IMG/VR virus record: IMGVR_UViG_3300025018_000001
From: a virus
Lineage: Duplodnaviria > Caudoviricetes
Reading direction: 5' to 3' (one strand)
Length of the DNA: 64,000 nucleotides
The position numbers and the translations under genes are program-made. A model generated the notes under the pieces. The model did no database searches and was not told where the DNA came from. It saw only the letters and a program-made list of their open reading frames with translations. Of the stretch, positions 5,525 to 63,693 are shown piece by piece; position 1 is the first letter of the stretch, and every line of letters starts with the position of its first letter.

Positions 5525-5557
5525 CCTATTAGAATTAAAGGAGTAATCAAGTAAGTT

Positions 5558-13980: not shown

Positions 13981-14169
13981 ATGGGCGGCTGGCAAATAAC
14001 CCTAACGGTTTGGATACTTATACAAACTGTAGTAAAGATGTGGATGATACCACCACTGTATAAACAATTAGCCATACCAAACGGTGGAAGAAATGGCGCT
14101 ATGGTAGGCACTTTTCTTTGGGGTGCTACAACTATATTTATACTTTATATGGCTGGTTTTTACAGTTAA
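13981..14169 (+). CDS. Small membrane protein
   Basis: GAGG RBS, hydrophobic. Confidence 0.55.
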   Translation: MGGWQITLTVWILIQTVVKMWMIPPLYKQLAIPNGGRNGAMVGTFLWGATTIFILYMAGFYS

Positions 14170-14182
14170 TTGGAGAAATACA

Positions 14183-15331
14183 ATGTATGAACACTTGCAT
14201 AAACCATTTATTACTACTTATGGGAAGCCCTTTGTTAACTATGCTCAAATGTTAGAACAAGGGGCTGCAGAACAAATGTCTGAAGTACTGAGACATGATT
14301 GGGTTATAAAAGGCGCTCTCATGCCAGATGCTCATCAAGGGTATACATTACCGATAGGTGGTGTAATAGCATGTAAAAATATGATAAGCGCCGCTTGTGT
14401 AGGTGTTGATATAGGTTGTGGTGTATGTGCACAACTTACATCTATGGACCCAGATATACTTAAAGATAACAAATTTGCAATAAGAGATGCAATACTTAAA
14501 GCAATACCGCACGGTTTTAATCACCAACTTTCTGCGCAAAAATGGCCTGAGTATTATACACTTGACAAAACTGATTGGTTTGATGGTTTCTTCCATGCAA
14601 AAAATGGTTTTAATCAACTTGGTACCCTTGGTGGAGGTAACCACTTCATCGAAGTTGGTATTGATGAGATGAATGAAGTGTGGATTGTGATACATTCAGG
14701 TAGTAGAGGTGTAGGCAATAACACCGCAGAAAGTTACATAGCAGAAATGAAACCAGTTAATGCACCAAAAAACGGTATGTATGGTGTACCATTTGATAGC
14801 GACCTTGGCCAGGCTTATTACAAAGATATGAATGTTTTGCTAGCTTTTGCCCTTGAAAATCGTGTACAAATGATTACAAAAGTCATGGAAGTGCTTACTA
14901 CTTTTGATCCAAAAATCGGCAAGTCCGAGTTATTTATCAATCGTACGCATAATCATGCCGAAGCTAAAGGAGACATAGTAATTCACAGGAAAGGTGCTAC
15001 ACATGCTGAAAAAGGTATGTATGGTGTTGTACCTGGAAACATGTTACATGGTTCTTATATTGTAATTGGAAAAGGTAATCCAGACTCATTATGCTCTTCT
15101 TCTCATGGCGCTGGTAGAGTTCTTGGAAGAAAAGCAGCGGAACGAGAACTTGACTTAGATGAAATGCGTAAACAAATATCGGACAGTGGTGTTGCAGCTA
15201 GTGCTGAAAAAGTATCTGACCTACAAGAAGCACCAGATGCTTATAAACCCCCTGCTGATATAATGGAATTACAAAAAGATTTAGTTGATGTAGTTCACCA
15301 CATTAAACCTTGGGTAAACGTTAAAGGATAA
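14183..15331 (+). CDS. rtcB: RNA ligase RtcB
   Basis: MPDAHQG..LPIG, VGVDIGCG, LGTLGGGNHFIE, HSGSRG, HNHA, HRKGAT, PGNM, SSSHGAGR, EAPDAYK; GGAG RBS at 14172. Confidence 0.95.
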   Translation: MYEHLHKPFITTYGKPFVNYAQMLEQGAAEQMSEVLRHDWVIKGALMPDAHQGYTLPIGGVIACKNMISAACVGVDIGCGVCAQLTSMDPDILKDNKFAIRDAILKAIPHGFNHQLSAQKWPEYYTLDKTDWFDGFFHAKNGFNQLGTLGGGNHFIEVGIDEMNEVWIVIHSGSRGVGNNTAESYIAEMKPVNAPKNGMYGVPFDSDLGQAYYKDMNVLLAFALENRVQMITKVMEVLTTFDPKIGKSELFINRTHNHAEAKGDIVIHRKGATHAEKGMYGVVPGNMLHGSYIVIGKGNPDSLCSSSHGAGRVLGRKAAERELDLDEMRKQISDSGVAASAEKVSDLQEAPDAYKPPADIMELQKDLVDVVHHIKPWVNVKG

Positions 15332-28872: not shown

Positions 28873-28958
28873 GTAAAACAAGTGGAAGAAAAGTATAGGA
28901 CTTTTAGTGTAATGCTAAGTTGATTCAATTATCACTTCTTCTAAATAAAGGAATAAAC

Positions 28959-30296
28959 ATGACTATAGAGCAAGAGATTATAAAAAGGTTAGATGCAGCA
29001 GGATTCCAAGTTTTCATTGTAGGTGGTGCGATTAGAGATGAAATACTTGGTTTACCTATTAATGATATTGACTTTGCCACTAATGCAAGGCCAGAACAAA
29101 TTATTAAATTGTTCAAAGGAAAAAACATAGGGGTTGTAGGTAAAAGTTTTAAAGTTGTATTTGTAGAAGGAGTACAGATAGCCACATTCAGAAAAGATGT
29201 ACAGAACGTATTCTTTAGTGCAAAATTTTGTGAGCCTGTTTACGCAGATACAATACAAGAAGACCTTGAAAGAAGGGATCTAACTATGAACGCCATGGCA
29301 AGAGATGCCGTAACTGATGAGTTCTTTGACCTACATGGTGGTGTAGATGATATTCGTAATGGTATAATACGTTTAGTAGGCGACCCTATTGAACGAATTC
29401 AGCAAGATCCTAATAGAATAGTAAGAGCCTGTAGATTACTAGCTAAAACTGAAGGAATCTTTGCACCAGAGACTTATGCAGCATTATGTGAATGTGCTGT
29501 GTATATAAAGCGACATGTTGAAGCAGAACGCCTCTGTGATGAGATTATGAAAGCTATGGAGGTAAGGACACCTTCGCTGTTCTTTAGTGCTCTACACACT
29601 ATAGGGGCGTTAAAATATATATTTCCAGCAATGGCTGACTCGTTTGACTACAGTGGAGGGGAATACCATAAAGAAACTATTGGTGAACATCTAATGATGG
29701 CTGGTGATATTATCTCACCTAGATTTCCAGTACTTAGGTTAGCTGGATATCTGCATGATATAGGTAAACCAAAAGCATTTGATAAAGAAAAAGATGGTAG
29801 TTTTAAAGCCCATGAAGCGTATGGGGCTGAGATGGCCAATAGGTACCTACGCAAATTAAAATTCCCTAATAGTATTACAAATGAGGTTGTTGGGCTGATT
29901 GATAGCCACATGCGCGTCTGCCGTGGGTTAACACCTAAAGGTATCAGACGTTTAAGAAAACATTTAGCGGACTCAAATGTAGACCCTAGAAGCTTTCTAC
30001 GTTTGAAGTTAGCTGATAGGTCTGCAAATATGTACAGGTCACCGAGCGAAATTAAACCAATAAAAGAATTAATAATTAATGCGGGTATTCGTTGTGACCC
30101 TAATGAAGTATCTGTGGTATCCTTGAAAGACTTAGCTATATCTGGTGGAGAATTAATGAAAGAATTCAATTTACCACAGGGTGCTATAATAGGTGAAATA
30201 CATAGGGCATTGTTGGAATTTATTATAGAAGAAGGCGATGAATTCAATACCTATGATATATTGAGAAATAAAGCGAAAGAGTTACTACAACAGTAA
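28959..30296 (+). CDS. cca: CCA-adding/poly(A) polymerase-family nucleotidyltransferase with HD domain
   Basis: VGGAIRD, DIDFAT, DLERRDLTMNAMA, DPNRIVRA, ERL, LHDIGKP, H. Confidence 0.9.
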   Translation: MTIEQEIIKRLDAAGFQVFIVGGAIRDEILGLPINDIDFATNARPEQIIKLFKGKNIGVVGKSFKVVFVEGVQIATFRKDVQNVFFSAKFCEPVYADTIQEDLERRDLTMNAMARDAVTDEFFDLHGGVDDIRNGIIRLVGDPIERIQQDPNRIVRACRLLAKTEGIFAPETYAALCECAVYIKRHVEAERLCDEIMKAMEVRTPSLFFSALHTIGALKYIFPAMADSFDYSGGEYHKETIGEHLMMAGDIISPRFPVLRLAGYLHDIGKPKAFDKEKDGSFKAHEAYGAEMANRYLRKLKFPNSITNEVVGLIDSHMRVCRGLTPKGIRRLRKHLADSNVDPRSFLRLKLADRSANMYRSPSEIKPIKELIINAGIRCDPNEVSVVSLKDLAISGGELMKEFNLPQGAIIGEIHRALLEFIIEEGDEFNTYDILRNKAKELLQQ

Positions 30297-47011: not shown

Positions 47012-48106
47012 ATGCAAATAGAAAGATCTGAAGTAATGTCAAAACTTGCTGGTATAGAAGATAGTCTTATAAGAATTCCCGAAGGCTTGAGAAAAGAGCT
47101 TCAAGTTGATTTGGGCAATATTATTATAGTTAAGGGTTTACCCTTGCAAGTTAATAAAGCGTTCAAACAAGAGGCTATTCCGTCAGTTTTAAAGGCATTC
47201 GTATCAGACAACGTAATAAAAAAGTTAGGCATACCAACGCATAACTTGTCACTTGAACAACATATAACAATGGGCTGTGATCCAGAGTTATTTTTAGTAG
47301 ATATGAAAACAAATAGGTTGTATAATCCAGGTTTCTTAGTAAAAAAGACAGCTACTGTGGGTTACGATGGTATGTTGGCAGAGTTAAGACCAGCCCCTGA
47401 TGTAGACCCAGACGAGGTTGTAAATAATCTTTATAAACTAATAGTTGAACTAAAAAATGTACTAATAAAACATAGGCTCCATAATGTGCGTATGATTGCC
47501 AAGTCTGGTGGGTGGAATTTATTCGCCGGATTTCATGTCCATTTGGGTATACCTAAAAAATTATTAGACCCTGGAATGCCAAATTATATAAAAATATTAA
47601 GAGTAATACTAAAGTCATTAGACTACTACGTAGGTACTCTAGCAGTTTTAGCAGAAGGTAAAGACTACACTAGAAGATGTAACCCACTTGTTGCTTATGG
47701 AAAAGTAGGCGATTTCAGAGTAGATAACAGAACACTTGAATACAGAGTACCTGGTGGTGCATTATTAAAGCACCCAGATTTAACTAGGGGTCTGATAAGT
47801 GTGTCTTCTTTAGTAGCACATGATGTGATTGAAAGACTTCGAGTGTTTACAAATGATTTTGTTGGGGACATCGAAGACGAAAGTACTTTAGCAAAACAAA
47901 TCTATCCTAATTTGATAGATACACAGCACATGTTCCCTCTGATATGTGCACCTGACGTAGGGAAAGCATTTAAAGAATTGGATAACGTTCAACAAGATTT
48001 AAGTTGTATGGTCAACTACGACTATTATAGAGAGTCTCTAGAACGCTTTTATAACTTACTACATATAAAAATAGCCGATGATATTTGGCTTAATTGGAGT
48101 AAATAG
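47012..48106 (+). CDS. phiEco32-like COOH-NH2 ligase type 2 (copy 2) with extra N-terminal domain
   Basis: MGCDPELFL, DG..AELRP, GFHVHLG, YGKVGDFR...LEYRVP. Confidence 0.85.
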   Translation: MQIERSEVMSKLAGIEDSLIRIPEGLRKELQVDLGNIIIVKGLPLQVNKAFKQEAIPSVLKAFVSDNVIKKLGIPTHNLSLEQHITMGCDPELFLVDMKTNRLYNPGFLVKKTATVGYDGMLAELRPAPDVDPDEVVNNLYKLIVELKNVLIKHRLHNVRMIAKSGGWNLFAGFHVHLGIPKKLLDPGMPNYIKILRVILKSLDYYVGTLAVLAEGKDYTRRCNPLVAYGKVGDFRVDNRTLEYRVPGGALLKHPDLTRGLISVSSLVAHDVIERLRVFTNDFVGDIEDESTLAKQIYPNLIDTQHMFPLICAPDVGKAFKELDNVQQDLSCMVNYDYYRESLERFYNLLHIKIADDIWLNWSK

Positions 48107-49714
48107 ATGTATAACGATAAATGGATATTTTTTAATAACCTACCTGGAAAACCAGCACTTTCTAATGAGGAAGTAAAATACTGGCTTGGTAGTTTAAATA
48201 AAGTTTTGAAAGTAGGAGTTGAATTTGAATTCAATCTTCAAGATGCGAAAGGTTTTTGTAGAGGAGCTAGTGAAAGTTGTCCATGTGTAAATATGAATGA
48301 TGCACATGATTGTTGGAAAGCCTGTTTGAATGAAGCAGAGTGCAAGGTATTGCTTGGTAAAGATTTCGATATGCAATGTCATAAACAATTCTGCAGCGGC
48401 TTTAGAAGTGCATGTATATCGTGTAAAGACTTTAAAGTTAATTGTTTAAACTGTAAATATATGTATGACCCAAGCCATGACCCAGATTCAATTAGACAGT
48501 TTTTGCGTAATTATTTAGAGCCATCAAAAAGTTATGGTAATTTAAGTAGGACAGGTGTTCATAGTGTTGTATGTGATGGTTCTTTATTAGGTGAAGGTCA
48601 GGAGGGTAAAGGTGTAGAAATAATTACTGTTGGTAGACGTGTTGATTATTGGGAATTTTACAATATGATTAGTGATATCATAACATCCTCTATACAAAAA
48701 GGCGCTTATGTCAATGAGAGATGTTCAACACATATACATGTACTGACAGGTTATTTTGATGCACAGGAGAGAGATTCCAGATTCAATGATGTGAATGATT
48801 TGGAAAAACCACTTCCTCAAATAGTAATGGCTAACTTTCATCAATTATGTAGAAGATACCAAAATGCTCTAACTTGGATGTCTATGGGTTTAGACCAGCC
48901 TGAACAACTCACTAGGTGGGAAAAGTATAGAGTGTCATTACTCGATACTTCACCAGTGTCTATGTCTATGCCTGACATAATAAGAAGATTAGAAGAAATA
49001 TCCTATAAGCCCCGTGGTAAGTATGGTTGGGCTAACTATATGTACTCTAAATTTAATCATAACAACGATGTAACAAGATTTCATGCAGAGATGCGGGTAT
49101 TGGATGGCATGATGTCTGCAAGTGTCGTAACAGCAATGTGTTGTTTATATCAGGCACTACTGGTTAAAGCTGTTGAAATATCTAAGTATGGTCTACTTGA
49201 ACTAGGTTCTAAAGAATGGTTTGACCAAACTATAGACATTAAGCATAGACTGTTGAACAATGCCCCACAAGGATGGAGCGAAAACAGGTTTTCTAATACT
49301 GAGAACTTGAGAGAAGAGCACATGGAGATTCTTAGAATGGAGTCTTTAGATCTACTTAACCAAATAAAACATCTGTTAATGCGAACTGGTCCAGCGTTTG
49401 AAGTATTGGAGAAGTTAGCACAAAAACCTGTTGCTTTCTTTAGATGTGATGGAGAGTCATGGGAAAGTATTGAAGAACACTTTGCTGTATTTAGAGCTAG
49501 TGAAACTATTTTAGATCAAAAAATTGATGAAATTATTGATTTTAGAACTATATCTGGCTGTAAAGATGAGATGACATGGCTTGAAAAAGTAAGTGGTATG
49601 TTAGAGAAGGAAGGTATAGCTACCATTGAGCAAGTTCTAAATAATGTCGCTATCCAAAAACGGAATGGGTTATGTATTTGGTCGGATAACCTCGGAACTT
49701 TATTAAAAGTATAA
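48107..49714 (+). CDS. Amidoligase-2 family enzyme with Cys-rich insertion
   Basis: VGVEFEF, DGSL, EIIT, CSTHIHV, KYGWANY, AEMRVLDG; about 14 Cys in residues 50-120. Confidence 0.8.
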   Translation: MYNDKWIFFNNLPGKPALSNEEVKYWLGSLNKVLKVGVEFEFNLQDAKGFCRGASESCPCVNMNDAHDCWKACLNEAECKVLLGKDFDMQCHKQFCSGFRSACISCKDFKVNCLNCKYMYDPSHDPDSIRQFLRNYLEPSKSYGNLSRTGVHSVVCDGSLLGEGQEGKGVEIITVGRRVDYWEFYNMISDIITSSIQKGAYVNERCSTHIHVLTGYFDAQERDSRFNDVNDLEKPLPQIVMANFHQLCRRYQNALTWMSMGLDQPEQLTRWEKYRVSLLDTSPVSMSMPDIIRRLEEISYKPRGKYGWANYMYSKFNHNNDVTRFHAEMRVLDGMMSASVVTAMCCLYQALLVKAVEISKYGLLELGSKEWFDQTIDIKHRLLNNAPQGWSENRFSNTENLREEHMEILRMESLDLLNQIKHLLMRTGPAFEVLEKLAQKPVAFFRCDGESWESIEEHFAVFRASETILDQKIDEIIDFRTISGCKDEMTWLEKVSGMLEKEGIATIEQVLNNVAIQKRNGLCIWSDNLGTLLKV

Positions 49715-49767
49715 CATGTGTTGGGTGGTTGTACTTTGTTATAATCACTCAACACGATAAAGAGGGA

Positions 49768-50502
49768 ATGATGGGCGGAATTTTTGGATTTACCTTATTG
49801 AATAATAATAAAATGGGTAAGGATAGTATCATTACTCTAACCACTGAGCTACTAAAAAGTCAGTTAGGTCCTACAGAAGAAATTAATATAGCTATAACAA
49901 CAAGCGAAAACATACACGTAATCAAAACTAATATGTCAATTCCTCGTTTTATAGCTACTAAAGAGTTCAAAGAGTTTATGCACAACGCTCTAAAAGATAT
50001 TACTATATATTCACTAATTGGTAGTTTCAAAGATAAGGTTACATACAAAGAATTCTTAGATTTAAATGATGAGCCTATGGTTACATTTGGTGAGGTAGTA
50101 TGTGTACAAAAAGAAAAAGAATTTACAGACGTAGATTCTGGTGGTGTGGTTGTTGCTGAAATATTTGATAGATATGAATTCGCAATCGACCTAACTACTC
50201 GTATAAAAACTGCAGCTAAGGATGTTAAATTGTATGCGGCTGTACATGCTGCTTACCCATCTTGTCTGTTAATAGCAAAACACACAGCAGACCCGTTGGA
50301 ATTGTGTATGTTCGCACAATATGGTGTGTTTATTTTTTCTTCTATTTCAAAAAGTGTAGACAAGGTTACACAATTGTTGTTGCTTGGTAAACGAGAAACA
50401 GTAGAGATGTTCTCATATCAAGCCTTTTTACTTAATATGAGTACAAATACGTATAAAGTAATAAACTCTTATTCTGGAAATGTAAATTATGCAATTAAAT
50501 GA
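49768..50502 (+). CDS. Degenerate class II (Ntn) glutamine amidotransferase-like protein lacking the N-terminal Cys
   Basis: MGGIFGF start versus MCGIIG in the paralogue at 52280; similar pattern D...V.AE, YA. Confidence 0.55.
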   Translation: MMGGIFGFTLLNNNKMGKDSIITLTTELLKSQLGPTEEINIAITTSENIHVIKTNMSIPRFIATKEFKEFMHNALKDITIYSLIGSFKDKVTYKEFLDLNDEPMVTFGEVVCVQKEKEFTDVDSGGVVVAEIFDRYEFAIDLTTRIKTAAKDVKLYAAVHAAYPSCLLIAKHTADPLELCMFAQYGVFIFSSISKSVDKVTQLLLLGKRETVEMFSYQAFLLNMSTNTYKVINSYSGNVNYAIK

Positions 50503-52258
50503 AAGTTTTCTACTAGGTCATTGTAGAACACCGGGAGTAACCTATGAAGGATTAACAATACCTAAGTTACAACCTGTAATTTTTACAAATGTACCTGGTG
50601 ACTCATGTTATTTTATAAATCAATTCGGGACTAGTAATACAAGACGTCCCTGGGATGTCGGACAAGAAAGAGTTAATAGAATCTTGAAAGGCGATGTAGC
50701 TAGACATAAAGTTTTTTCTAATAGAGAAATTTCTTTTATGTTAGCGTATACAGAAACTAAACAAATCAGTATAAACTTCTTAAGGTCACTTGCAGAAGGG
50801 CATAAAAGATGTACATTTGTACTCACAGGATCACGTCTAAAAACACTTGTTGAGGATATACCTAAACTTGAGAAAGAATTTAAAACATTTTATAGAACTT
50901 ACGAGTACTATGAAGATGCCTCAAGAAGTAATGATAATTATATATTTATGTTATCTATATATGATTTGTCAACAATAGTAGCAAATTTGAAAAATAGGAC
51001 TATCGACGGTTTTGGTTTAGCGATTGAGGTATTAAATAAGTACAATACTTCAAGGTATAAAATGCCTATGCCTAGTTATTCAACATATATGATTTTTACA
51101 AACAACTATGAAGATGTTTATTTCAGAGACTGCGTAGAAATTATAAGATGTTCTCATATCGACTACGGAAATATGTCTGATATGGTTTATCAATTAGTAA
51201 AGTACCAAAAAGACGAGGATTTTATAGGTGCTGTAAGTTTTGAAAAATCTTTAAAACCGCAAATGAAGTTTAAAACACCAAGTAGCGCACGTATTTCAAT
51301 ACAAGAAATGGAAGCACATGAAAAATCTGTTATAAAAGCCAAACAATTGGATTCAGACGCTAAATTCAAGGCACGTATGTCTGCCAAACCTGTGAGAGCG
51401 GAATGGGACCCAGCATTTGATGACTTAGATACTTATGAGTTTAAAACAGTACATGCTAATGATGAGTTTCAACAAGTACCAATACCTGTACCTGCACCTG
51501 TACCTACAACAGATATGGACTTATTAAATGAATCTGAGTATGAAAAATATATGGCTTATGCTAATGATATAACTGCTAAGGCTATTAAAACAGTGACTGC
51601 TAAGGCTATTAAAACAGGCGTGTGTTTTTCTGATGGGGAGTTGGCAGCTCTCCAGAAAACAATTAAGGACGTAGGCCTTGAAGGTACTGTGGATGTTAAA
51701 CGCAAGTCTTCAGATAATACTACTAATGAAATATTACAAGTAGACCCAGATATGTATGGGACTGCTAATTTTATGCCAAAATCTGCGCCGGTTATAGATG
51801 ATGGCCCTGATTGGTGGGGTGCTATAGAAGAAGGTATCTCTGATGTTGCAGCGGTACCGCAGGTAGATAATAAACATGTGACTTCACATAAAGTTGTTAA
51901 AGCTACTAGAAGTGCTGTATCTCCTACAGGAAGGCATAAAAAAGAAGATATGTATAGAATGATGTACAGTGGAGGTGGTGGTAAAAGTAATATAGCTCCC
52001 CAGAAAAAAACTATACTCGACTACGAAGCATATGAGGTAGATGTTATTAATGAGATAGCTGAATCGGTAGAAAAGAAAAAACAACAAAATGTTAAATCAG
52101 GGCAAAAAGTGTATGTTGCTTCAAATAAAGCGCATAAATCAAAACGGAACACCAGTAAAGTAATTAGCACTAGTGCTACTGCTACTGCGACTACCACTTT
52201 TGATACTGAGTACAGTGGTGGCTTTACTACCATTAGTGATACTTTTATAAAATATTAA
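50489..52258 (+). CDS. Large hypothetical protein with low-complexity C-terminal half
   Basis: 589-aa ORF. Confidence 0.75.
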   Translation: MQLNESFLLGHCRTPGVTYEGLTIPKLQPVIFTNVPGDSCYFINQFGTSNTRRPWDVGQERVNRILKGDVARHKVFSNREISFMLAYTETKQISINFLRSLAEGHKRCTFVLTGSRLKTLVEDIPKLEKEFKTFYRTYEYYEDASRSNDNYIFMLSIYDLSTIVANLKNRTIDGFGLAIEVLNKYNTSRYKMPMPSYSTYMIFTNNYEDVYFRDCVEIIRCSHIDYGNMSDMVYQLVKYQKDEDFIGAVSFEKSLKPQMKFKTPSSARISIQEMEAHEKSVIKAKQLDSDAKFKARMSAKPVRAEWDPAFDDLDTYEFKTVHANDEFQQVPIPVPAPVPTTDMDLLNESEYEKYMAYANDITAKAIKTVTAKAIKTGVCFSDGELAALQKTIKDVGLEGTVDVKRKSSDNTTNEILQVDPDMYGTANFMPKSAPVIDDGPDWWGAIEEGISDVAAVPQVDNKHVTSHKVVKATRSAVSPTGRHKKEDMYRMMYSGGGGKSNIAPQKKTILDYEAYEVDVINEIAESVEKKKQQNVKSGQKVYVASNKAHKSKRNTSKVISTSATATATTTFDTEYSGGFTTISDTFIKY

Positions 52259-52279
52259 ACAACGAGAGGAAATTTAAAT

Positions 52280-53983
52280 ATGTGTGGGATTATAGGCGTA
52301 CTGGCTTTAGGTGCGGCAAAAGAGGATCTACGAACAGACGTTATGCGATTTCTATTTACTGAGTTACTTCAGTTGACTGAGGAACGAGGTAAAGACGCCA
52401 CAGGTGTATCAGCACTATTTTCTGATGGTATGTCTTATATACAAAAAGGACCTATAACTGCAACAGAGTTTATAGGTAATTTAGGAGATGAGGAAACCAC
52501 ATATAATAGTTTTCTAAACAATTGTGACTCATATAGTGATGCTAATGAAGCAGAACTGAAATTGTTTATGGGGCATTGTCGAAAAAGTTCGGTTGGTGGT
52601 GCTTTTGATAATGTAAACAACCATCCAATTAAGGTTGGAGAAATTGTTGGTGTACACAACGGCACATTAGAGAATCATAACAAAGTTTTTACTAATCTTG
52701 ATTGTAAGCGTGATGGTGTTGTTGATACAGAAGCTATTATGCGCTTGTTAAATCATTATACCAATTATTGTACAGACCCTTTCACGATAGAAGGTATGGA
52801 AGAGACAGCTAAACGACTTGAAGGGGCGTATAGTGTATTAGCTTATAATGCTAATAACCCCTTTCAAGTTTGTATCATGAGAAAAGAACGCCCATTTGAG
52901 ATTGCCTTAATCAGGGATTATGGTATTATGTTGATTGCTTCGGACAAGGCATTCTTTGTGAAAGCCCTGTATCAATATAATAAATTTGCATATTTGTTTA
53001 ATAACGATTTTAAACCTATTGACGTAGAAGAAGTGGAAGCATTTACACTACCTCTGGATAATGTAGGGATTATTAACTTGAATGTTGATGTAACTGACGA
53101 CACAGTAATTGAAGATCTTATTCTACGTAAAGATGTGTTTAAGTCTGAAAAATTGTGGAGAATGCCAACTAAGACCTATGGTAAAAGAACTACTTATAAT
53201 GGTCACCAACATGTGAACAATAATGTTGGTAAAAAAAACGACATTCAAAACGGAACAAAAGAAACAACAGCAACAACACAAAAAGACGTTCCAGTCAAGG
53301 ACGATTTTAAAGGTAAAGTCTTTTGCAAACGACTTAATGCTTATGTTAACCAAGAGAAAATAGATGAAAATAAATCTGCTGGTCCTAAAGTAGTAAGTAT
53401 TAATGGTGGAAAAGTACAAGATCTGAAACAAGAAGAGCTGATTGACTTTAAAGAAGTAAAAGATCTTACAATAACCGCAAAAGAACAAGCCGTTCCTATT
53501 ATTATGAGTGAGGTAAAAGCAGTGGATGCAACTTTGGCAGAGGCTATGAAAGCAGCAACGGCGCATGAGAATTTTAATACACGTTTCAGTAATAGTAAGG
53601 AAGTTATTGACGCTTTAGATATTAGATCTGAAGATACTTTGGATAGTATCCCAGCTTTTGCGCTTGTTAATAAAACTAAAGATACCGTGTACAAAGAGGC
53701 TTTTGTAGACGGTGCTTTATGGTACAAAGAGACTCATAGTGATGCAGATAATACTGTTGACCCTACCGCAGCTGTACGTATAGCCAAGCACGTTGTAGAG
53801 GTGTTTGGTAATGTTATGTGTCAGTTGGCGAATGGGCGTGAAGAGGATTATGCATCTAAGATATTAATGGAGTTAAAGAAAAAGAATATCACTGAGCTAA
53901 CCTTAGAAAATGTAAGAAGAATATTTTCAAAAGGAGATAAGATATCCTGTAAGGCCCTGGTTGCTTTGGAGGATGTAATATAG
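52280..53983 (+). CDS. Class II (Ntn) glutamine amidotransferase with long C-terminal extension
   Basis: MCGIIG, RGKDATG, GHCR, NNHP, VHNG, VDTE. Confidence 0.9.
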   Translation: MCGIIGVLALGAAKEDLRTDVMRFLFTELLQLTEERGKDATGVSALFSDGMSYIQKGPITATEFIGNLGDEETTYNSFLNNCDSYSDANEAELKLFMGHCRKSSVGGAFDNVNNHPIKVGEIVGVHNGTLENHNKVFTNLDCKRDGVVDTEAIMRLLNHYTNYCTDPFTIEGMEETAKRLEGAYSVLAYNANNPFQVCIMRKERPFEIALIRDYGIMLIASDKAFFVKALYQYNKFAYLFNNDFKPIDVEEVEAFTLPLDNVGIINLNVDVTDDTVIEDLILRKDVFKSEKLWRMPTKTYGKRTTYNGHQHVNNNVGKKNDIQNGTKETTATTQKDVPVKDDFKGKVFCKRLNAYVNQEKIDENKSAGPKVVSINGGKVQDLKQEELIDFKEVKDLTITAKEQAVPIIMSEVKAVDATLAEAMKAATAHENFNTRFSNSKEVIDALDIRSEDTLDSIPAFALVNKTKDTVYKEAFVDGALWYKETHSDADNTVDPTAAVRIAKHVVEVFGNVMCQLANGREEDYASKILMELKKKNITELTLENVRRIFSKGDKISCKALVALEDVI

Positions 53984-53989
53984 ATTAAT

Positions 53990-55318
53990 ATGCCTAAACC
54001 ATTAATTATTATACCTTCCGAGTCAATGGATGGTAATAAAAAACCTGACAGGGATGAGAATGTCCTGCTGAGAATGGCTAAAGCTACTAGAAATAGTGTA
54101 GCACTGGATGATGACAGTGTTACACTATCTGGTATAGCTAAAGATAAAAAACTCAACGTATTCAAAGCGTATACTAAGGATTTAATAAAAGTAAGAGAGT
54201 TTATCCTAAATGATACATTACAATATGATGATTCTTCAAGAGTAGCTTTTGTATCATCAAGGACGTTTAAAGAACTAGGTGGTACAGGCGACTTTTTAGA
54301 TTTAAGTAATATTCAAGCGCCACCTCCGCCACCACTTAAAAAGGTAGAAAAAGAGGTAATTGATAAATTACTTATAGGAACAGATCCAGAACTTCTTCTT
54401 ATGTTACAAGGTAAAGTAGTTAATGCTTCTGGTATTGATGGCTTCGATAAGAAAGCTAAGTTTGGTTCTGATGGTGCTATGGCTGAAATGAGACCAGATC
54501 CTGCTTTATCGGCTGAAGGTCTTGTTGCCAATATACAAAAGATTTTGAATGACCAAAAGCTACAAGAAAAAGTGTCTAAGTATGACTTGATTAGTTCTTG
54601 TTATCATGAAGAAGACGCAAGAGATTATCCAGTTGGAACACATATTCATATTGATAATCCAGCTAAGATTGCACAGTTACCTGTAGAACAAAGATATCGT
54701 TTATTCGCAGTAACAAACAAAATAATGGACGAGTTACTTACTGTACCAGCTGTGCGTTTAGATGGTCAGAAGGGCCATAATAGACGGGCTAAGTGTAGAA
54801 TGAGTACACACAATGGTTATGGTAATGATTATGGTAAAGGTTATGGCTTTTTTGGTGAGTGGCGTGAATGTCATGGTAGGTTAGAACATAGAAGTATGTC
54901 TGGGCTTGTTCTTATGAACCCCGCTGTGGCTAAAGCTGTATTTGGTACGGCGCAGGCTATTGCTGAGGCGGTATATAATGAAGCGCTTCAAAATGATTTG
55001 AATAAAGACTTTATTTTACCAAATGATTTTGATTATAAGAACATATATAAAGCAACCTTCAAAAAATGGGGAGACATACCACTTGCAGAAACTTTAAATT
55101 GTACACTATCTTCAAAAGAAATAGCAACACTGATGGACTCCAGTGATAGAAAAGTTGTATCTACTGGTTATATCAAAAAATGGCTTACTAAAATCAGAAC
55201 TTTATCAACGTATGGTAAATTTTCTGAACATATCGAAGCTTTAGGAGATATACTATCTTCTTCAGATAAAGTTATTGATGGTTTCGATACAAATATTAAA
55301 AACACATGGAAGGATTAA
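53990..55318 (+). CDS. phiEco32-like COOH-NH2 ligase type 2 (copy 3) with extra N-terminal domain
   Basis: IGTDPELLL, DG.MAEMRP, VGTHIHI, YG.FGEWR...LEHRSMS. Confidence 0.85.
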   Translation: MPKPLIIIPSESMDGNKKPDRDENVLLRMAKATRNSVALDDDSVTLSGIAKDKKLNVFKAYTKDLIKVREFILNDTLQYDDSSRVAFVSSRTFKELGGTGDFLDLSNIQAPPPPPLKKVEKEVIDKLLIGTDPELLLMLQGKVVNASGIDGFDKKAKFGSDGAMAEMRPDPALSAEGLVANIQKILNDQKLQEKVSKYDLISSCYHEEDARDYPVGTHIHIDNPAKIAQLPVEQRYRLFAVTNKIMDELLTVPAVRLDGQKGHNRRAKCRMSTHNGYGNDYGKGYGFFGEWRECHGRLEHRSMSGLVLMNPAVAKAVFGTAQAIAEAVYNEALQNDLNKDFILPNDFDYKNIYKATFKKWGDIPLAETLNCTLSSKEIATLMDSSDRKVVSTGYIKKWLTKIRTLSTYGKFSEHIEALGDILSSSDKVIDGFDTNIKNTWKD

Positions 55319-55325
55319 TTAAATT

Positions 55326-56408
55326 ATGAAAAGCACTTATGTATGGTACTCTCCGGCAACTGATGTAACTGGTAAAAAACTTCAAGAAGCTTTAGATGCT
55401 TCCGGCGGAACGGCAAAACCACCTGCTGATAAAACGCATGTTATTTGTTGGGGTACAAAAACAGATGCAGATGTAGTACTAAACAATGGTAAAGTATACA
55501 ATCATCCAAACAAAATTCGTGTTAATCGTAATAAGGTTGGTGCGTTGGGTGCATTGCGCAAAGGTGATGTTAATGTGGCTAATTTCACTGAAAACTTTAA
55601 ACTTGCTGGTAATAAGGAATACCCTTTTCCTTTGGTAGCACGTACTAAATTTCATCAGGGTGGTGCTGGTTTCTGGTTGTGCCTCTCTGCAGCTATGATT
55701 GCACAAGCAGTAAAAGAAGGTGCTCAATATATTCAGACATTCATTGATATTAAAGATGAATATCGTCTCCATGTGGTTGGTGATAATGTTATCTATGGAG
55801 TACGTAAAGTACAACGTGATAATCTTCAGGAAGCTTTTGCTGCACATTACGCGGAATATGTAGATGCCAAAGCAGTGAAGGGTAAAGTCAACCTTGACAA
55901 AGCTACCATGGATTATGTGCTGAAGAAAATTGCGCCTAAACTTGCACCAAGCCCAGATATGATAATTCGTTCTAATACGCGTGGATGGAAGTTCAGCAAA
56001 GTGGCCAATGATAATCTTGATAAAGGGCTTGTAGCTGAAGCAGTTAAAGCAGTTAAAGCACTTGGTCTAGATTATGCCGCAGTAGACTGTTGTATTGATA
56101 CCACTGGTAAAGCGTATGTTATTGAGTGTAACTCTGGTCCTGGCCTCGACGGTACATCTTTTGACGCATGGACTACTGCCTTTAAAGATTTGGTAGCTCC
56201 TCCAAAAGCGGCTGCTAAGAAGGCTGCTGCTGCTCCAATTGAACAGGCGGTTAAAGCTAATGTTGGTGTTGCTGCTGCTAAACTTGGTGGTGCTAATGCT
56301 AAACAACGTCTCAAAGAAAGAGCTGCTTTTCTCGCTCAATTGGCGGAAGTTGCTGATGATGCTGATGCAGAACTCTTGGAAAAATTGTTGAAGAAAGCAA
56401 ATATGTAA
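55326..56408 (+). CDS. ATP-grasp ligase (RimK/YheCD-like, phiEco32-type)
   Basis: VARTKFHQGGAG, YIQTFIDIKDEYRLHV, IRS, LGLDYAAVD, VIECNSGPG. Confidence 0.9.
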   Translation: MKSTYVWYSPATDVTGKKLQEALDASGGTAKPPADKTHVICWGTKTDADVVLNNGKVYNHPNKIRVNRNKVGALGALRKGDVNVANFTENFKLAGNKEYPFPLVARTKFHQGGAGFWLCLSAAMIAQAVKEGAQYIQTFIDIKDEYRLHVVGDNVIYGVRKVQRDNLQEAFAAHYAEYVDAKAVKGKVNLDKATMDYVLKKIAPKLAPSPDMIIRSNTRGWKFSKVANDNLDKGLVAEAVKAVKALGLDYAAVDCCIDTTGKAYVIECNSGPGLDGTSFDAWTTAFKDLVAPPKAAAKKAAAAPIEQAVKANVGVAAAKLGGANAKQRLKERAAFLAQLAEVADDADAELLEKLLKKANM

Positions 56409-59597: not shown

Positions 59598-59679
59598 GCA
59601 AGAGTGGTGTAATTGGTAGCCACCCAGGTCTTAGAAGCCTGTGCCTTCGGGTGTGAGAGTTCGAGTCTCTCCTCTTGCA
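59598..59679 (+). tRNA. tRNA-Leu (UAG), CCA not encoded
   Basis: GCAAGAG/CTCTTGC acceptor, CAGGT-CT TAG AA-GCCTG, variable arm, GAGAG-TTCGAGT-CTCTC. Confidence 0.95.
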
Positions 59680-59719
59680 TATAAAACAAATCAAATAAAA
59701 TAATTAAACATGAGGTAGT

Positions 59720-60016
59720 ATGTCAACAACAGAAAATAAATTTGGTAAATTAAGATTGTCTGTTGAAGGAACAAATAATGGTTCTGGGTTTGATATATTC
59801 TATGACTTTGGTAAATCATTAGATTTTGCTGAATTCACATCAAAACATGAATTTTATTTTATCCAACCATGGATGCAATTTCCTTCGAAAGAATATAGTG
59901 ATACTTGTAAATTAGTATCTATTGAACTAGTAAAAAGATTTAATCAATATGATGACCTAGTACGAGAAAATAAAAGGTTATTAGAATGTATTGAACATTT
60001 AAAAAAACAAGGATAA
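59720..60016 (+). CDS. Hypothetical protein
   Basis: GAGG RBS. Confidence 0.7.
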   Translation: MSTTENKFGKLRLSVEGTNNGSGFDIFYDFGKSLDFAEFTSKHEFYFIQPWMQFPSKEYSDTCKLVSIELVKRFNQYDDLVRENKRLLECIEHLKKQG

Positions 60017-60018
60017 CT

Positions 60019-60495
60019 ATGATAACTGTAATTCAGGGTTTAAAAAGAATTAAACACCTACTGCGTAAAATCGAAACAACACAAGGGCGTATTGCTCGTT
60101 GGTGCTCTTATACAAATGATGAAGAACCATTGTATACTGATATCAACGCCCTTATCCAATCTGCAAACGATATGCAAGCCGAAGTTGGTAAAATTCGTCA
60201 TGCTATTCATAAACTCAATGCAACTACAGTAGTTACTTTTAAGGATAAAGAAACCACCCTTGATGAGTTATTAATTGAGGCCACGGTGAACATTCCTGTA
60301 CGCATTGCTACATTGAAAACTCTTCGTAGGAAAGAGAAAAATGGTTACATGCATAATGCCAAGCAAGAAGTAAAGGTAATTCTACAGTACGATCCACATA
60401 AACGTGATAAAGATTTGGATGCCTTAATTGAATTGCAATCTGATATTAATGATTTTATTGATATTATGAACATTCAATTAGAACTTCCAATGTAA
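60019..60495 (+). CDS. DIP1984-like (DUF6847-like) helical protein
   Basis: Resembles the remembered family pattern: MITVIQGL, AIHKLNATT, TTLDELL, INDFID..N..LEL. Confidence 0.6.
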   Translation: MITVIQGLKRIKHLLRKIETTQGRIARWCSYTNDEEPLYTDINALIQSANDMQAEVGKIRHAIHKLNATTVVTFKDKETTLDELLIEATVNIPVRIATLKTLRRKEKNGYMHNAKQEVKVILQYDPHKRDKDLDALIELQSDINDFIDIMNIQLELPM

Positions 60496-60500
60496 TTTAA

Positions 60501-60699
60501 TTGTATGGGTAGTGATAAAGATCTATAAAAAATCTTTTAACTGATATCAGGGGCTGGACAACCAGCAAGATTAGGTTTAAGGACTAAGGTATTAGGAATA
60601 TAGGTTTTAGTTGTTATATCACAAATAAAAATCCTTGTAGTAGAATGTGGTTTTTAAAAGATTTCCCTTTAGGTGCTCACAAGGCAGCTATCTGTACAA
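60501..60699 (+). ncRNA. Structured RNA with 7-nt-periodic (T/A)AGG loop, directly after the DIP1984-like gene
   Basis: 13-bp terminal stem, perfect 11-bp inner stem, 6-bp stem, GCTGG/CCAGC hairpin. Confidence 0.7.
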
Positions 60700-60706
60700 T
60701 TAGTAA

Positions 60707-60778
60707 AGGGATGTAACTCAATGGTAGAGTACCAGGTTTTGAGCCTGGGAGTTGTAGGTTCAAGTCCTACCGTCCCCG
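60707..60778 (+). tRNA. tRNA-Gln (UUG), CCA not encoded
   Basis: CCAGG-TT TTG AG-CCTGG; GTAGG-TTCAAGT-CCTAC; 1-72 mismatch. Confidence 0.92.
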
Positions 60779-60780
60779 AA

Positions 60781-60915
60781 TAATACAACAAAGGTATACG
60801 TGTAAGAAACATAAGAGAAATAGATGGTACTCTGGCTGAGTACATACTCACTGCGCTACCCGTGCAGAGTGACATTAGGTTATATAGACTCTTAGGCCTC
60901 GTTATTGTTGTATTA
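60781..60915 (+). ncRNA. Unidentified multi-stem RNA between tRNA-Gln and tRNA-His
   Basis: taatacaacaa/ttgttgtatta, taagag/ctctta, gtactc/gagtac, tcac-tgc/gca-gtga. Confidence 0.6.
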
Positions 60916-60923
60916 GTTTTGCA

Positions 60924-60996
60924 GTGGGGTTAGCTCAATTGGTCAGAGCACCTGGTTGTGGCCCAGGAGAAGGGGTTCGAGTCCCCGCCTCACCCA
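60924..60996 (+). tRNA. tRNA-His (GUG) with a short 4-bp T stem
   Basis: GCTC/GAGC D stem, CCTGG-TT GTG GC-CCAGG, GGGG-TTCGAGT-CCCC. Confidence 0.85.
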
Positions 60997-61009
60997 ATTT
61001 AGTATAGTT

Positions 61010-61361
61010 AAGGAGGTAGGCTTAGAAGCAGCTATTGGTACAAGGAACTAAATACATTGCCAAATGTTGTAGTTTTTCAGGGCCAGCGTAGTTAAACTAG
61101 CTAAAAAACTAGGGAGAACTATTGCCTTTAAAGAGTAGATCGTGATACTTGGAACAGTATACTAGGTAGAGGAAACCTACCATAGCTGTTCCCTCTTACA
61201 GATGTGGGTCAGATCCAAAGATGAACTCTTGGGCAGGGCTGTAAGATGCGCTGCGGAGTCGTTCACCAGTGACTGTGAGTAATGAGTGGTTGCCTACTTG
61301 ATGATACACACACTGCGAAGTTAGACGCAACCATGGATTTTTTGGCGTAACAGCACACTTT
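61010..61361 (+). ncRNA. 23S rRNA GTPase-associated-centre (H43/H44, L11-binding domain) mimic split by two insertions
   Basis: AGGAGGTAGGCTTAGAAGCAGCTAT [89 nt] CCTTTAAAGAGT [208 nt] GCGTAACAGCACACTT, collinear with E. coli 23S positions ~1053-1106. Confidence 0.85.
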
Positions 61362-61388
61362 TCTATTCTAATTTTACGGAGAAACTTT

Positions 61389-61640
61389 ATGGGCAAGACG
61401 TGTAAGTTTTGTTTAAGTGAAGATTTAATACCAGTACATGATCATTACATCTTTTGTGCCAACTGTACAGCTATCTATACATCTATGATATTAATATCAA
61501 AATCTTGTGAACATATAAACGATGGTTCTATATCTGTTGATAGAGTGCCTTGGTATAAGGAACTCAGACAAACGTTCCCATATATAATAGATGATAAATG
61601 CTCTGAGTGTGGAAAAGAAGCAATCGCTGATGGATGGTAA
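61389..61640 (+). CDS. Small Zn-finger protein
   Basis: CKFC, CANC, CSECG. Confidence 0.65.
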   Translation: MGKTCKFCLSEDLIPVHDHYIFCANCTAIYTSMILISKSCEHINDGSISVDRVPWYKELRQTFPYIIDDKCSECGKEAIADGW

Positions 61641-61652
61641 ATTTATTATGAG

Positions 61653-61922
61653 GTGTTTATGGATCTTTTAGAATTTTTTGATATTTATAATATAAATCAT
61701 TTAATTGCCTACAAATATCTAACAGAAACAGGTACATGGCCGGAGGGATTTATACCCGACAAATGTATATTGTCTAATGTATGGCAGTATCAGCTAGCGG
61801 CAAAAATGGCTGTAGCTTATGTAAATCTTGGTGTAGCAGGTAAAATACCAAGTATACTAGAGGAATCTGCCAGAATGACAAAGGAAGAAGAGGATGAAAT
61901 AATAAGAAGGGGTTACTTCTAA
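61653..61922 (+). CDS. Hypothetical protein
   Basis: GAGG RBS. Confidence 0.65.
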   Translation: MFMDLLEFFDIYNINHLIAYKYLTETGTWPEGFIPDKCILSNVWQYQLAAKMAVAYVNLGVAGKIPSILEESARMTKEEEDEIIRRGYF

Positions 61923-61951
61923 CAAACTAATATAGGATTAAAGGAGAAGGA

Positions 61952-62542
61952 ATGTGGTATAATTTTTTTATTATTGGTGGTATATGGTTCTGGCTTCTGT
62001 TTGCATTAGAAATGTGCTCTTTATTTTATTATACATACAATGAGGATACTGCAGAGTCATGTATAAGTTTTGTAATCTTCCTTGCTATTATACATTTATT
62101 TGGTGACGCCTCTTTATTTACGTACATTCAGAATAATAGTATGGATACTCTACGCTATATATCATTATATCTTGGTATTGGTGTAGGTTTCTACTTTTTT
62201 TACTCTGCGTACAAAATGTTTACGTTTAAAATGTATGCTAGAGAACTTAAAGAAAAGTGGGGGAAAATTACTAATACTGATGAATCATGGGAAAAATATT
62301 TCTCTGCCGCAGTATCAGTTAAAGAAAGAAAAAAAGCCAGCTTAGACTATTACAAAGAAAGAGCACCGTTATGGATTATATGGTGGCCAGTAGTATCTAT
62401 TACCGCTTTGTTAGGCGACTTCCTGGTTAATTGTGTGAAGTATACATACACGTTATTTTTTGAACGTATAATCAAAAAGATGCATGGTGCCATTTTAGGT
62501 AACTCTATACCTCCAGAAGATCCTATGAGTAAAAGATGGTAG
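61952..62542 (+). CDS. Multi-TM membrane protein
   Basis: Four hydrophobic segments; AAGGAG RBS. Confidence 0.7.
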   Translation: MWYNFFIIGGIWFWLLFALEMCSLFYYTYNEDTAESCISFVIFLAIIHLFGDASLFTYIQNNSMDTLRYISLYLGIGVGFYFFYSAYKMFTFKMYARELKEKWGKITNTDESWEKYFSAAVSVKERKKASLDYYKERAPLWIIWWPVVSITALLGDFLVNCVKYTYTLFFERIIKKMHGAILGNSIPPEDPMSKRW

Positions 62543-62548
62543 TAAGCT

Positions 62549-62755
62549 ATGCATAAATTTCCCGAAGAAAAACCAAAAGAAAACCTATCTGTCATTGCTT
62601 ATACAAAAAATGGTGGTATTTACCTAGCTAATTACAGAAAATCACTTACATGGTCTGGTTATAAAATGCAATTTATCAATACACTTAGTAGAGGTTTTGC
62701 TATAGATCAAGTAATAGGTTGGAATAGAATTCCACAAACAACGGATACACTATGA
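62549..62755 (+). CDS. Small phage protein (DUF551-like)
   Basis: FPEEKPK...VIAYTK...VIGW. Confidence 0.5.
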   Translation: MHKFPEEKPKENLSVIAYTKNGGIYLANYRKSLTWSGYKMQFINTLSRGFAIDQVIGWNRIPQTTDTL

Positions 62756-62789
62756 CAATATAAAATATAACTTGACAAAGTAATATAAA

Positions 62790-63104
62790 ATGTATATACA
62801 GTTAAAAGATAAAGATAATTTCAAATCAGGTGTCTTGTATATTCATTGTGATACAGAAGAGTTCCTTGCTCAGATAAACAAATGGTTAGTTGAATTAAAA
62901 GACTGGGTGGCATCTACTGTATATTCTGGTATGCCACTTAGTAGATTTGACCCAGAAGTAGCTATGGTTGATTTGATATGGTATCTTTGTAAGTACTACG
63001 ATGAAACAAGTATGCTAAGAGAAAAAGGAAGGATAATTGGTACGTTTAGATTGGTACCTTACTCAGTAGCCGATAAAGATATTACTACTATACTATTGAA
63101 TTAG
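62790..63104 (+). CDS. Hypothetical protein
   Basis: ORF track. Confidence 0.6.
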   Translation: MYIQLKDKDNFKSGVLYIHCDTEEFLAQINKWLVELKDWVASTVYSGMPLSRFDPEVAMVDLIWYLCKYYDETSMLREKGRIIGTFRLVPYSVADKDITTILLN

Positions 63105-63126
63105 TTTAAAAATTTTAAGGAGTGGA

Positions 63127-63504
63127 ATGAAAACATTTAATATTTATGCAAATCCTCAGAAGCAGTATAAGGCAGTTAAAATTGGATGGTCTTGGCCAGG
63201 ATTCTTTTTTTGTATTGTTTGGGCATTGATTAAACAGATGTGGGCAGTTGCAGGAATTCTTTTTGCAGTATTTTTTGTTATTGGAATGCTTACGGCTGGA
63301 ATGCCCGAAGATGTTTCTAACGGTTTGCTTAATATTTTATCATTGGGTGCTTCTCTCCTAGTTGGTTTTCAAGGAAACAATTGGGTCAGAGCTAACTTGC
63401 TTTCTCGTGGATATGAGTTGATAGACACTGTAACAGCTACTAATAAGGAAGCAGCTATTGCCTTATTCCTTAGATCTTCATCACCAGTAGCAGTAGCAGC
63501 ATAA
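63127..63504 (+). CDS. DUF2628-like membrane protein
   Basis: KAVKIGWSWPGFFF, GNNWVRANLLSRGYE. Confidence 0.75.
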   Translation: MKTFNIYANPQKQYKAVKIGWSWPGFFFCIVWALIKQMWAVAGILFAVFFVIGMLTAGMPEDVSNGLLNILSLGASLLVGFQGNNWVRANLLSRGYELIDTVTATNKEAAIALFLRSSSPVAVAA

Positions 63505-63512
63505 AGTTGTGG

Positions 63513-63585
63513 GCGCCTGTAGCTCAGTGGATAGAGCATTTGCCTTCTAAGCAAAAAGTCGTTGGTTCGAGTCCAACCCGGCGTA
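63513..63585 (+). tRNA. tRNA-Arg (UCU), CCA not encoded
   Basis: TTTGC-CT TCT AA-GCAAA; GTTGG-TTCGAGT-CCAAC. Confidence 0.93.
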
Positions 63586-63601
63586 AATTTAAGATGTACC
63601 T

Positions 63602-63674
63602 ACTCCTATACCTCAATTGGTTAGAGGGCACGCCTTATAAGCGTGTCATATGGGTTCAATCCCCGTTGGGAGTA
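63602..63674 (+). tRNA. tRNA-Ile (UAU), CCA not encoded
   Basis: ACTCCTA/TGGGAGT acceptor; CACGC-CT TAT AA-GCGTG. Confidence 0.88.
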
Positions 63675-63693
63675 AATGATATTAAACTAACTT

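Follow-up and report, generated by a model that had tools for sequence, protein, structure and literature searches.

A free-standing RNA resembling the ribosomal GTPase-associated centre in the tRNA array of a groundwater phage, and the phage RNA family it belongs to

The window examined here, a 64,000-nt stretch of DNA from a groundwater phage (Duplodnaviria; Caudoviricetes; IMG/VR record IMGVR_UViG_3300025018_000001), has all of its open reading frames (ORFs) on the + strand and carries five tRNAs at 59598-63675, likewise all on the + strand. Within this tRNA array, at ~61003-61367 (+), lies a ~365-nt non-coding RNA (ncRNA) element whose core resembles the GTPase-associated centre (GAC) of 23S ribosomal RNA (rRNA) and is interrupted by two large inserts. 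The element had been proposed in an earlier annotation made from the letters of the window alone (the sequence-only reading), which put it directly after tRNA-His; that tRNA ends at 60995 and the element begins 8 nt further. The next ORF begins at 61389, ~20 nt past the closing stem, and no terminator was found 3′ of the element.

The core consists of three collinear + strand blocks that the sequence-only reading had picked out and that are found in place on re-reading: 61010-61035 (A1053-U1078 in E. coli 23S numbering, used throughout), 61125-61136 (C1079-U1090) and 61345-61360 (G1091-U1106). Joined, they read as the 58-nt uL11-binding domain (helices H42-H44) that it had described. The 1067 and 1095 loops are intact and identical to those of 23S rRNA, with A1067 at 61024 and A1095 at 61349. 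Reading through 60400-62000 located every pair previously listed (G1058-C1080, G1062-U1076, U1090-A1101 and the closing AAG/CUU), and the sizes given for the inserts, 89 nt (61036-61124) and 208 nt (61137-61344), hold. The closing, H42-like stem pairs A1053-A1054-G1055 with 61358-61360 and ends in G1055-C1104 and G1056.A1103 (61010-61013 with 61357-61360), A1103 being the partner of G1056 in the window's element. Since four more pairs (AUAG at 61004-61007 with 61363-61366) lie beyond a tandem U.U mismatch, the span of the element is placed at ~61003-61367. GCGUAAYAGCACAC stands at 61345-61358, with A1101 (61355) facing U1090. The parts of the element and other features of the window are listed in Table 1.

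Table 1 Coordinates of the element, its parts and other features of the window
Feature	Position	Strand	Basis
tRNA-His (GUG), upstream neighbour	60924-60995	+	tRNA and Rfam scans
Closing (H42-like) stem, 5′ strand	61004-61013	+	sequence, constrained fold, family covariation
H43, E. coli 1057-1078, with intact UUAGAAGCA loop	61014-61035	+	exact loop match at 61022-61030
Insert 1 (89 nt, two hairpins), set into the H43 internal loop at A1077/U1078	61036-61124	+	
H43 base 3′ strand, junction and H44 base 5′ strand, E. coli 1079-1090, CCUUUAAAGAGU	61125-61136	+	
Insert 2, structured domain at E. coli 1090/1091	61137-61340	+	compensatory changes versus the homologue L121
UUUG linker between insert-2 closing helix and G1091	61341-61344	+	absent from rRNA
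H44 tip and 3′ strands (E. coli 1091-1106, GCGUAACAGCACACUU), then extended closing-stem 3′ strand	61345-61367	+	
RtcB	14123-15331	+	
CCA-adding enzyme with HD domain	28920-30296	+	
Amidoligase / ATP-grasp cluster: two phiEco32-like COOH-NH2 ligases, glutamine amidotransferase, RimK-like ATP-grasp enzyme	47012-56408	+	

A genuine 23S gene or gene fragment was rejected as the source of the element, the stretch having neither a large-subunit rRNA match nor adjoining 23S sequence. BLAST comparison with the E. coli rrn operon returned the H43 14-mer GGCTTAGAAGCAGC alone, in sense orientation, bearing out the earlier statement that no other rRNA surrounds the element. This 14-mer is single-copy in the window, where 0.24 chance matches are expected at ≤2 mismatches. 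A 12-mer in common with the E. coli rrn spacer (E about 0.1) was treated as chance. In Rfam, neither a large-subunit rRNA model nor any other family matched the element stretch at gathering score, and no credible match appeared at the relaxed threshold of E≤10; the weak hits, one at E 0.45 to a preQ1 tail and one at E 5.5 to sR12, were set aside as chance.

Judged by architecture and shared sequence blocks, the window's element belongs to a very large family of phage RNAs, among which its build is unusually elaborate. An exact IMG/VR scan with the H43 14-mer gave at least 119 loci, about half of them chance matches in coding DNA, and at least 59 with the architecture of the window's element: closing stem, GGAnGUnGGCUUAGAAGCAGCCAUCnUUUAAAGAGU, variable insert and GCGUAAYAGCACAC. 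A second scan, with the family-specific 3′ block TTTGGCGTAANAGCACAC that is absent from rRNA, gave at least 120 instances. Pooled, the two scans yield at least 140 elements with at least 120 distinct insert-2 sequences, which range from 41 to about 340 nt in length (median about 150). Members have in common a covarying closing stem, H43, (Y)UUUAAAGAGU, a 1090/1091 insert with its own helix, UUUG and GCGUAAYAGCACAC, and the window's copy displays each of these hallmarks, with its closing stem, a UUAGAAGCA-type loop followed by (Y)UUUAAAGAGU, a UUUG-ended insert and A1101. The last of these, which forms a Watson-Crick pair with U1090, sets the family apart from rRNA (U1101); the UUUG linker is likewise not found in rRNA, and TTTG ends 109 of the 120 distinct inserts. 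The closing helix of the 1090/1091 insert has a mean of 4.0 consecutive pairs, versus 1.2 for ends taken from different members. Both insert sites are fixed: 1090/1091 is occupied nearly always and 1077/1078 in about one member in eight, usually by a 22-34 nt hairpin, the 89 nt of the window being the largest clear case. One member (L030) is apparently without insert.

The sequence-only reading had named no description of such an element, and this part of it stands: the family is not in Rfam 15, full-text searches of the literature turned up no account of an RNA of this kind, the carrier-phage genome papers that these searches found make no mention of 23S, and a survey of virus-encoded ribosomal proteins makes no mention of an rRNA mimic. 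The phage GAC-mimic RNA family is thus apparently undescribed. The element is not, however, confined to this phage.

Several variants were observed among the members. One locus (L108) holds two copies, at 5129-5360 and 5446-5706, with a tRNA-Pro between them. A wastewater contig (run X17) has the 3′ block joined to the 5′ block, running from 61358 through a 16-nt hairpin-like spacer to 61014, a sign that some phage has the element in tandem or in circularly permuted form; as evidence of circularisation this joint was rejected, other family members (tandem copies) being the simplest source. Four unrelated members (L008, L051, L107 and L184) carry 1077/1078 hairpins with a common loop motif of type YUUGAGMA, a motif near CACCCCGUAAnUGGUAAGG recurs in the otherwise unlike insert 2 of L022, L068, L180, L194 and L203, and a subfamily of seven (L049, L053, L059, L168, L176, L182 and L199) has the blocks GUGCGAAAUGUAU and GUAUGAUGUG in common. 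Hairpins of the sarcin-ricin-loop type (AGUACGAGAGGA or a near variant) occur in the 313-343 nt insert 2 of L081, L157 and L218. Such a copy is present in only about 3 of 120 family inserts and none was found in the window; these sarcin-ricin-like hairpins suggest that some lineages may imitate the whole factor-binding site.

Base-pair covariation across the family supports the core fold. At every position of the closing stem all four Watson-Crick pair types occur, and 5.4 of its 6 positions are paired versus 3.3 with shuffled partners. In the hand-numbered core, 1058-1080 covaries (UA 51, GC 34, AU 23), as does the tertiary pair 1082-1086 (UA 56, CG 37, AU 19). Rare variants swap H43 stem pairs in concert (GGG/CCC, GGA/UCC, AGC/GCU), and the nucleotides of the GAC tertiary fold, G1056.A1103 (or A.A), U1060-A1088 and G1093.A1098, are invariant. 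A covariance model, R1, was trained on 25 short-insert members. R1 recovered all 63 loci outside the training set at E≤1e-6, mostly at 60-107 bits, scored 78.8 bits on Xanthomonas phage XacN1, and gave a single match in the E. coli rrn operon, the true GAC at 23S 1052-1110 (48.6 bits). Because of its large inserts, the window's element is matched in two halves, collinear and on the + strand, at 61009-61054 (19.3 bits, E 9e-4) and 61242-61364 (24.7 bits, E 3e-5), and the element of its close homologue L121 is likewise matched in split form. In a 63-sequence alignment, which was fitted to R1 and hence is biased towards the structure but agrees with the independent hand count, 91.6% of cells pair versus 75.8% when shuffled, double changes occur at 13 of 20 pairs, and the covariation score is 0.413 versus 0.121 for shuffled alignments, with 0 of 500 shuffles as high and slid controls at 0.04-0.16. 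On the strength of this covariation, the core is a selected RNA structure reproducing the 23S GAC (H42-H44, 1051-1108). The earlier description of a purpose-kept, free-standing imitation of H42-H44 is upheld by the covariation of the core, the retention of the fold nucleotides and the recognition of the E. coli GAC by R1.

The family is closely associated with phage tRNAs. A tRNA lies within 500 nt of 65 of the 120 distinct members and within 2 kb of 76, in all 76 cases on the same strand, whereas at control loci of chance matches the corresponding counts are 3 and 4 of 62. Carrier contigs are often longer than 100 kb, and all-against-all comparison of the ORFs within 4 kb revealed no protein family common to more than 5 of the 120 loci. 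This context bears on a cis-acting role, in which a ribosomal protein would bind the element and so control processing of the tRNA-array transcript or translation of the ORF at 61389. Imitation of rRNA by regulatory leaders is a known principle, and the element abuts the ribosome-binding site of that ORF with no terminator after it, but downstream neighbours are unconserved, most often being tRNAs, and there is no ribosomal-protein leader family match in Rfam and no ribosomal-protein gene nearby, so that we regard a cis-acting sensor as improbable. A ribosomal-protein leader as such (e.g. L10_leader) was rejected, there being no Rfam match and, among the downstream small phage ORFs scanned, no Pfam ribosomal-protein domain.

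Outside IMG/VR, unannotated members were found in many cultured phages of GenBank: the Aeromonas phage 4_4572, the Pseudomonas phages Astolliot, Milchi, pf16 and UNO-G1W1, the phages XacN1, XbC2 and XaC1, Serratia phage BF, the Erwinia pEa_SNUABM series, Cronobacter phage GAP32, Pectobacterium phage CBB, Yersinia phage fHe-Yen9-04 and Vibrio phage 2.275.O. In XacN1 the member (L224 2501-2729, corresponding to about 150358-150586 of AP018399.1, minus strand, unannotated) directly follows a 2′-5′ RNA ligase gene and is not part of the tRNA arrays in the terminal repeats. Among these carriers, CBB, GAP32 and XacN1 are jumbo phages. The 3′ block occurs at 57 places in GTDB genomes, about 30 of them with the full architecture and 0 in rRNA operons; the carriers are mostly contigs of metagenome-assembled genomes, and three are isolates of gut Clostridia. 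The window sequence itself is present in sequencing runs of aquifer and cold-spring DNA. The L121 contig, CBB, GAP32, XacN1 and a 518-kb contig carry one copy each, and no uL11 gene was found in these five family-bearing genomes, the positive controls having worked. With no uL11 gene in these phages and no conserved neighbouring protein, any partner of the RNA is probably a host one, presumably universal.

The two inserts can be assessed against the sole close IMG/VR homologue (L121/L139, on a 228-kb contig); blastn found no match to 60900-61400 in GenBank phages, and a protein-seeded scan of a metagenome collection found no close relatives. The two elements are 78% identical and L121 keeps both inserts, its neighbouring 158-aa gene is 87% identical to that of the window, and in both tRNA-Leu is followed in turn by this gene, tRNA-Gln, the element and tRNA-Arg. 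Insert 2 is closed by a helix of 61137-61141 with 61336-61340 (AGAUC/GAUUU), followed by UUUG. Its inner helices are 61151-61157/61186-61192, 61165-61169/61177-61181 and 61195-61201/61239-61245, and further helices are formed by 61215-61218/61229-61232, around the conserved loop AGAUGAACUC, and by 61286-61293/61327-61334. Most of the differences between the window's element and L121 are compensatory, with double changes of this kind at eight predicted pairs. The three insert helices cited in the sequence-only reading, all in insert 2, are each kept by such changes: ggaacag/cuguucc becomes ggaauag/cuauuc, gguag/cuacc becomes aaugg/ccauu, and cuuacag/cuguaag becomes auacgg/ccguau. In addition, ccaa/uugg becomes cuga/ucag and still encloses a conserved AGAUGAACUC-type loop, a C-G pair of the 61286-61293/61327-61334 helix (guggcuugc-type) is A-U in L121, an A-U pair of the junction helix is G-C, and of the four pairs in the inner stem of insert 1's first hairpin three are changed. 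Several single-stranded blocks are identical in the two elements.

Coding was rejected as the source of this conservation: indels of 1, 2 and 2 nt relative to L121 break any frame in the element, and a minus-strand 66-codon ORF at 61196-61396 is disrupted by indels in L121. In view of the compensatory changes, both inserts are, as far as this comparison of two sequences goes, folded, selected and lineage-specific domains rather than spacers, their full architecture not being fixed by two sequences.

Two complementarities within the inserts were noted. The apical loop of insert 1 at 61058-61064 (UGCCAAA) complements the linker stretch UUUGGCG at 61341-61347, a pairing that is kept in L121 (CGCUAAA), and the two could form a pseudoknot, or an alternative fold opening the H44 tip; the UGCCAAA/UUUGGCG complementarity was not seen in other members having an insert 1. 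In insert 2, all 14 nt of 61221-61234 are antisense to E. coli 23S 2464-2477 in H89 (E 0.006), a helix that adjoins the ribosomal factor-binding site. The antisense stretch comprises the apical loop AGAUGAACUC and its 3′ stem, and 9 nt (the loop) are kept in L121. It is absent from the inserts of the other family members examined, and the match is probably due to chance.

The conserved inserts argue against the suggestion, made in the sequence-only reading, that the RNA is a precursor from which both inserts are excised and whose ends are joined by the phage RtcB to give a 58-nt GAC. This phage does encode RtcB and a CCA-adding enzyme, and the last letters of the 5′ piece (U) and of insert 2 (G) are those seen at group I intron boundaries, but the inserts keep conserved helices and loops, are as short as 41 nt in some members and have no group I match (no RF00028 match at E≤10), on which grounds a group I intron was rejected. 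A bulge-helix-bulge reading of the junction was ruled out by its anatomy, which is that of a three-way junction whose UUUG linker is invariant. No RtcB was found in the five other family-bearing genomes named above, three of them ≥99% complete. The one joint that skips insert 1 (61042 to 61125) was seen in one contig only, at low stringency and with just 29 nt on one side, and is most simply a member without insert 1. We therefore consider RtcB-mediated splicing to a 58-nt GAC very improbable.

Even less credence can be given to a functionless, decaying relic of captured rRNA with inserted mobile DNA. A 6-nt direct repeat, CTATTG, does flank insert 1 (61032-61037 and 61119-61124), but the family-wide covariation and the conserved, family-specific A1101 and UUUG contradict a relic, and L121 conserves the element, with compensatory changes, but not the repeat.

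Elsewhere in the window, RtcB, the CCA-adding enzyme and the amidoligase / ATP-grasp cluster make up an RNA-repair and modification toolkit; an ATP-dependent ligase is also encoded, and the signal for a multisubunit RNA polymerase is weak. An intergenic stretch at 60496-60706, upstream of tRNA-Gln, is ~93% identical to L121, above the element (78%) and the gene (87% at the amino acid level). Its ends pair as a 14-bp stem (60500-60513 with 60688-60701) and (U/A)AGG repeats lie at about 60568-60610; no Rfam family matches this stretch, which may be a second ncRNA or a protein-binding platform. The tRNA-His and the 145-nt spacer between tRNA-Gln and tRNA-His (60779-60923) have no counterpart in L121 except a T-arm-like remnant.

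What such an RNA might do can be framed by precedent. The isolated 58-nt domain binds L11 and thiostrepton in vitro, oligonucleotide mimics of the GAC domain and the sarcin-ricin loop bind EF-G, and phage tRNAs counter host attacks on tRNAs. We propose that the RNA would be transcribed within the tRNA-array transcript and freed by tRNA-processing enzymes, and that its core would fold as the ribosomal GAC and be stabilised by uL11, which would be the host's since these phages encode none. The resulting small ribonucleoprotein would be a trans-acting decoy of the ribosomal site, rivalling ribosomes for an agent that acts on the GAC. The two inserts would supply additional binding surfaces or make the fold more stable. 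The leading candidate target would be a host enzyme or toxin aimed at the GAC, with a precedent in Tre23, which ADP-ribosylates 23S H44 at 1095-1098 and impairs the GTPase activity of EF-G (PMC8661411). Second candidates would be RelA, the translational GTPases, or a titration of uL11 that blunts the stringent response. A GAC-directed host activity is favoured because the RNA sits among phage tRNAs and a toxin against exactly this loop exists. An ncRNA family of GAC copies acting as trans decoys with host uL11 is the best explanation that we can offer, and we hold it as evenly poised between right and wrong. The fuller version, in which many large phages carry a portable, uL11-loaded GAC decoy for toxins or defence enzymes, RelA and GTPases, and in which the two domains of the window's copy add further partners, is put forward tentatively, with doubt slightly outweighing belief.

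In the 3′-block-anchored sample, which is unbiased for H43 (n=120 instances), the 19-nt H43 segment is exact in 56, has one mismatch in 28, two in 16 and three in 8, and has more mismatches or was not found in the remaining 12. The two factor-contacting loops are kept in most members, and both are intact in the window's copy.

Several points weigh against the decoy. About one member in ten has G, C or U in place of A1067, and the H43 changes cluster at 1067-1070. In five near-identical contigs related to L079 (L122, L123, L126, L127 and L138) the H43 stem-loop GGCUUAGAAGCAGCC is swapped for GGGAUUAAUGGCGUCC; in these loci the element lies about 200 nt upstream of the TTTGGCGTAA match and is otherwise nearly identical to that of L079. 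Since A1067 and 1068-1070 vary and the whole loop can be swapped, contacts of the factor or thiostrepton type are, to judge from these substitutions, less constrained than in ribosomes. Nearest-neighbour energies do not speak for the GAC fold, at -77.3 kcal/mol for the GAC-constrained structure versus -97.5 for the free one, and the z-score is -0.14; the natural GAC fold, however, relies also on ions, uL11 and tertiary contacts. In an alternative offered by RNAalifold, the linker UG pairs with C1102/A1103 instead of the GAC-like H44 base, a choice on which covariation is silent, the columns being invariant. The insert-1 site presumably lies near the contact of the uL11 C-terminal domain, so that interference is possible. 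The only RNA-labelled runs that contain this sequence (wastewater RNA-Seq) are probably DNA, and they cover coding flanks too. A decoy would also need to be a very abundant RNA to rival tens of thousands of ribosomes.

The greater constraint on fold positions than on A1067 is, as far as conservation can tell, more in keeping with recognition of the uL11 type than with a strict imitation of factor contacts, and so bears on the possibility that the RNA titrates host uL11 that is free or exchangeable, or binds RelA or GTPases directly, leaving infected cells relC-like without a (p)ppGpp response. RelA activation requires uL11, the features of the uL11-binding fold are the best conserved, above the factor-contacting A1067, and the phages examined encode no uL11 of their own; but titration would take near-stoichiometric amounts of the RNA, and removal of uL11 would slow the phage's own translation too, which leaves this explanation unlikely in our estimate, if deserving of attention. 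Binding of uL10 is doubtful, its site probably not being copied because the H42-like stem covaries freely, without conserved sequence.

If the trans decoy is correct, phages would manipulate translation with a detached ribosomal functional centre, besides tRNAs and ribosomal proteins; to our knowledge no strategy using a detached copy of a ribosomal centre has been described. It would also imply a GAC-directed host activity common enough to select such a copy in hundreds of unrelated large phages. Independently of this, the window's member shows that both insertion sites tolerate large, conserved, structured domains, which marks the faces of the GAC that must stay free. The question is directly testable, since cultured phages (CBB, GAP32, XacN1, Serratia BF, pf16 and Aeromonas 4_4572) carry the family.

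Compared with the bacterial 23S GAC (1051-1108), the window's element has the same secondary structure, 1067 and 1095 loops and tertiary-fold nucleotides. It differs in being free-standing in a tRNA array, in having A1101 for U and an insert plus UUUG inside the H44 stem, in adding a second insert in the H43 internal loop, and in an H42-like stem that is free to vary. Leaders of ribosomal-protein operons likewise imitate an rRNA protein-binding site outside the ribosome, the rplJ/L10 leader copying the L10(L12)4 site, next to the GAC. Such leaders are cellular, cis-regulatory, loosely rRNA-like and located 5′ of ribosomal-protein genes, whereas the phage element has a near-identical core and sits among tRNAs. 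At 61347-61352 the element reproduces the loop that Tre23 targets in 23S H44 (1095-1098; PMC8661411). This Rhs toxin, an interbacterial one of type VI, is not known to be linked to phage defence or to the phage RNA. Phage tRNA arrays replace or shield host tRNAs cut by anticodon nucleases, and the GAC mimic lies in the same compartment and on the same strand and would embody the same idea of a translation component supplied by the phage. Unlike a phage tRNA, a piece of rRNA is not simply swappable into the ribosome, so the mimic would serve as a decoy rather than a spare part.

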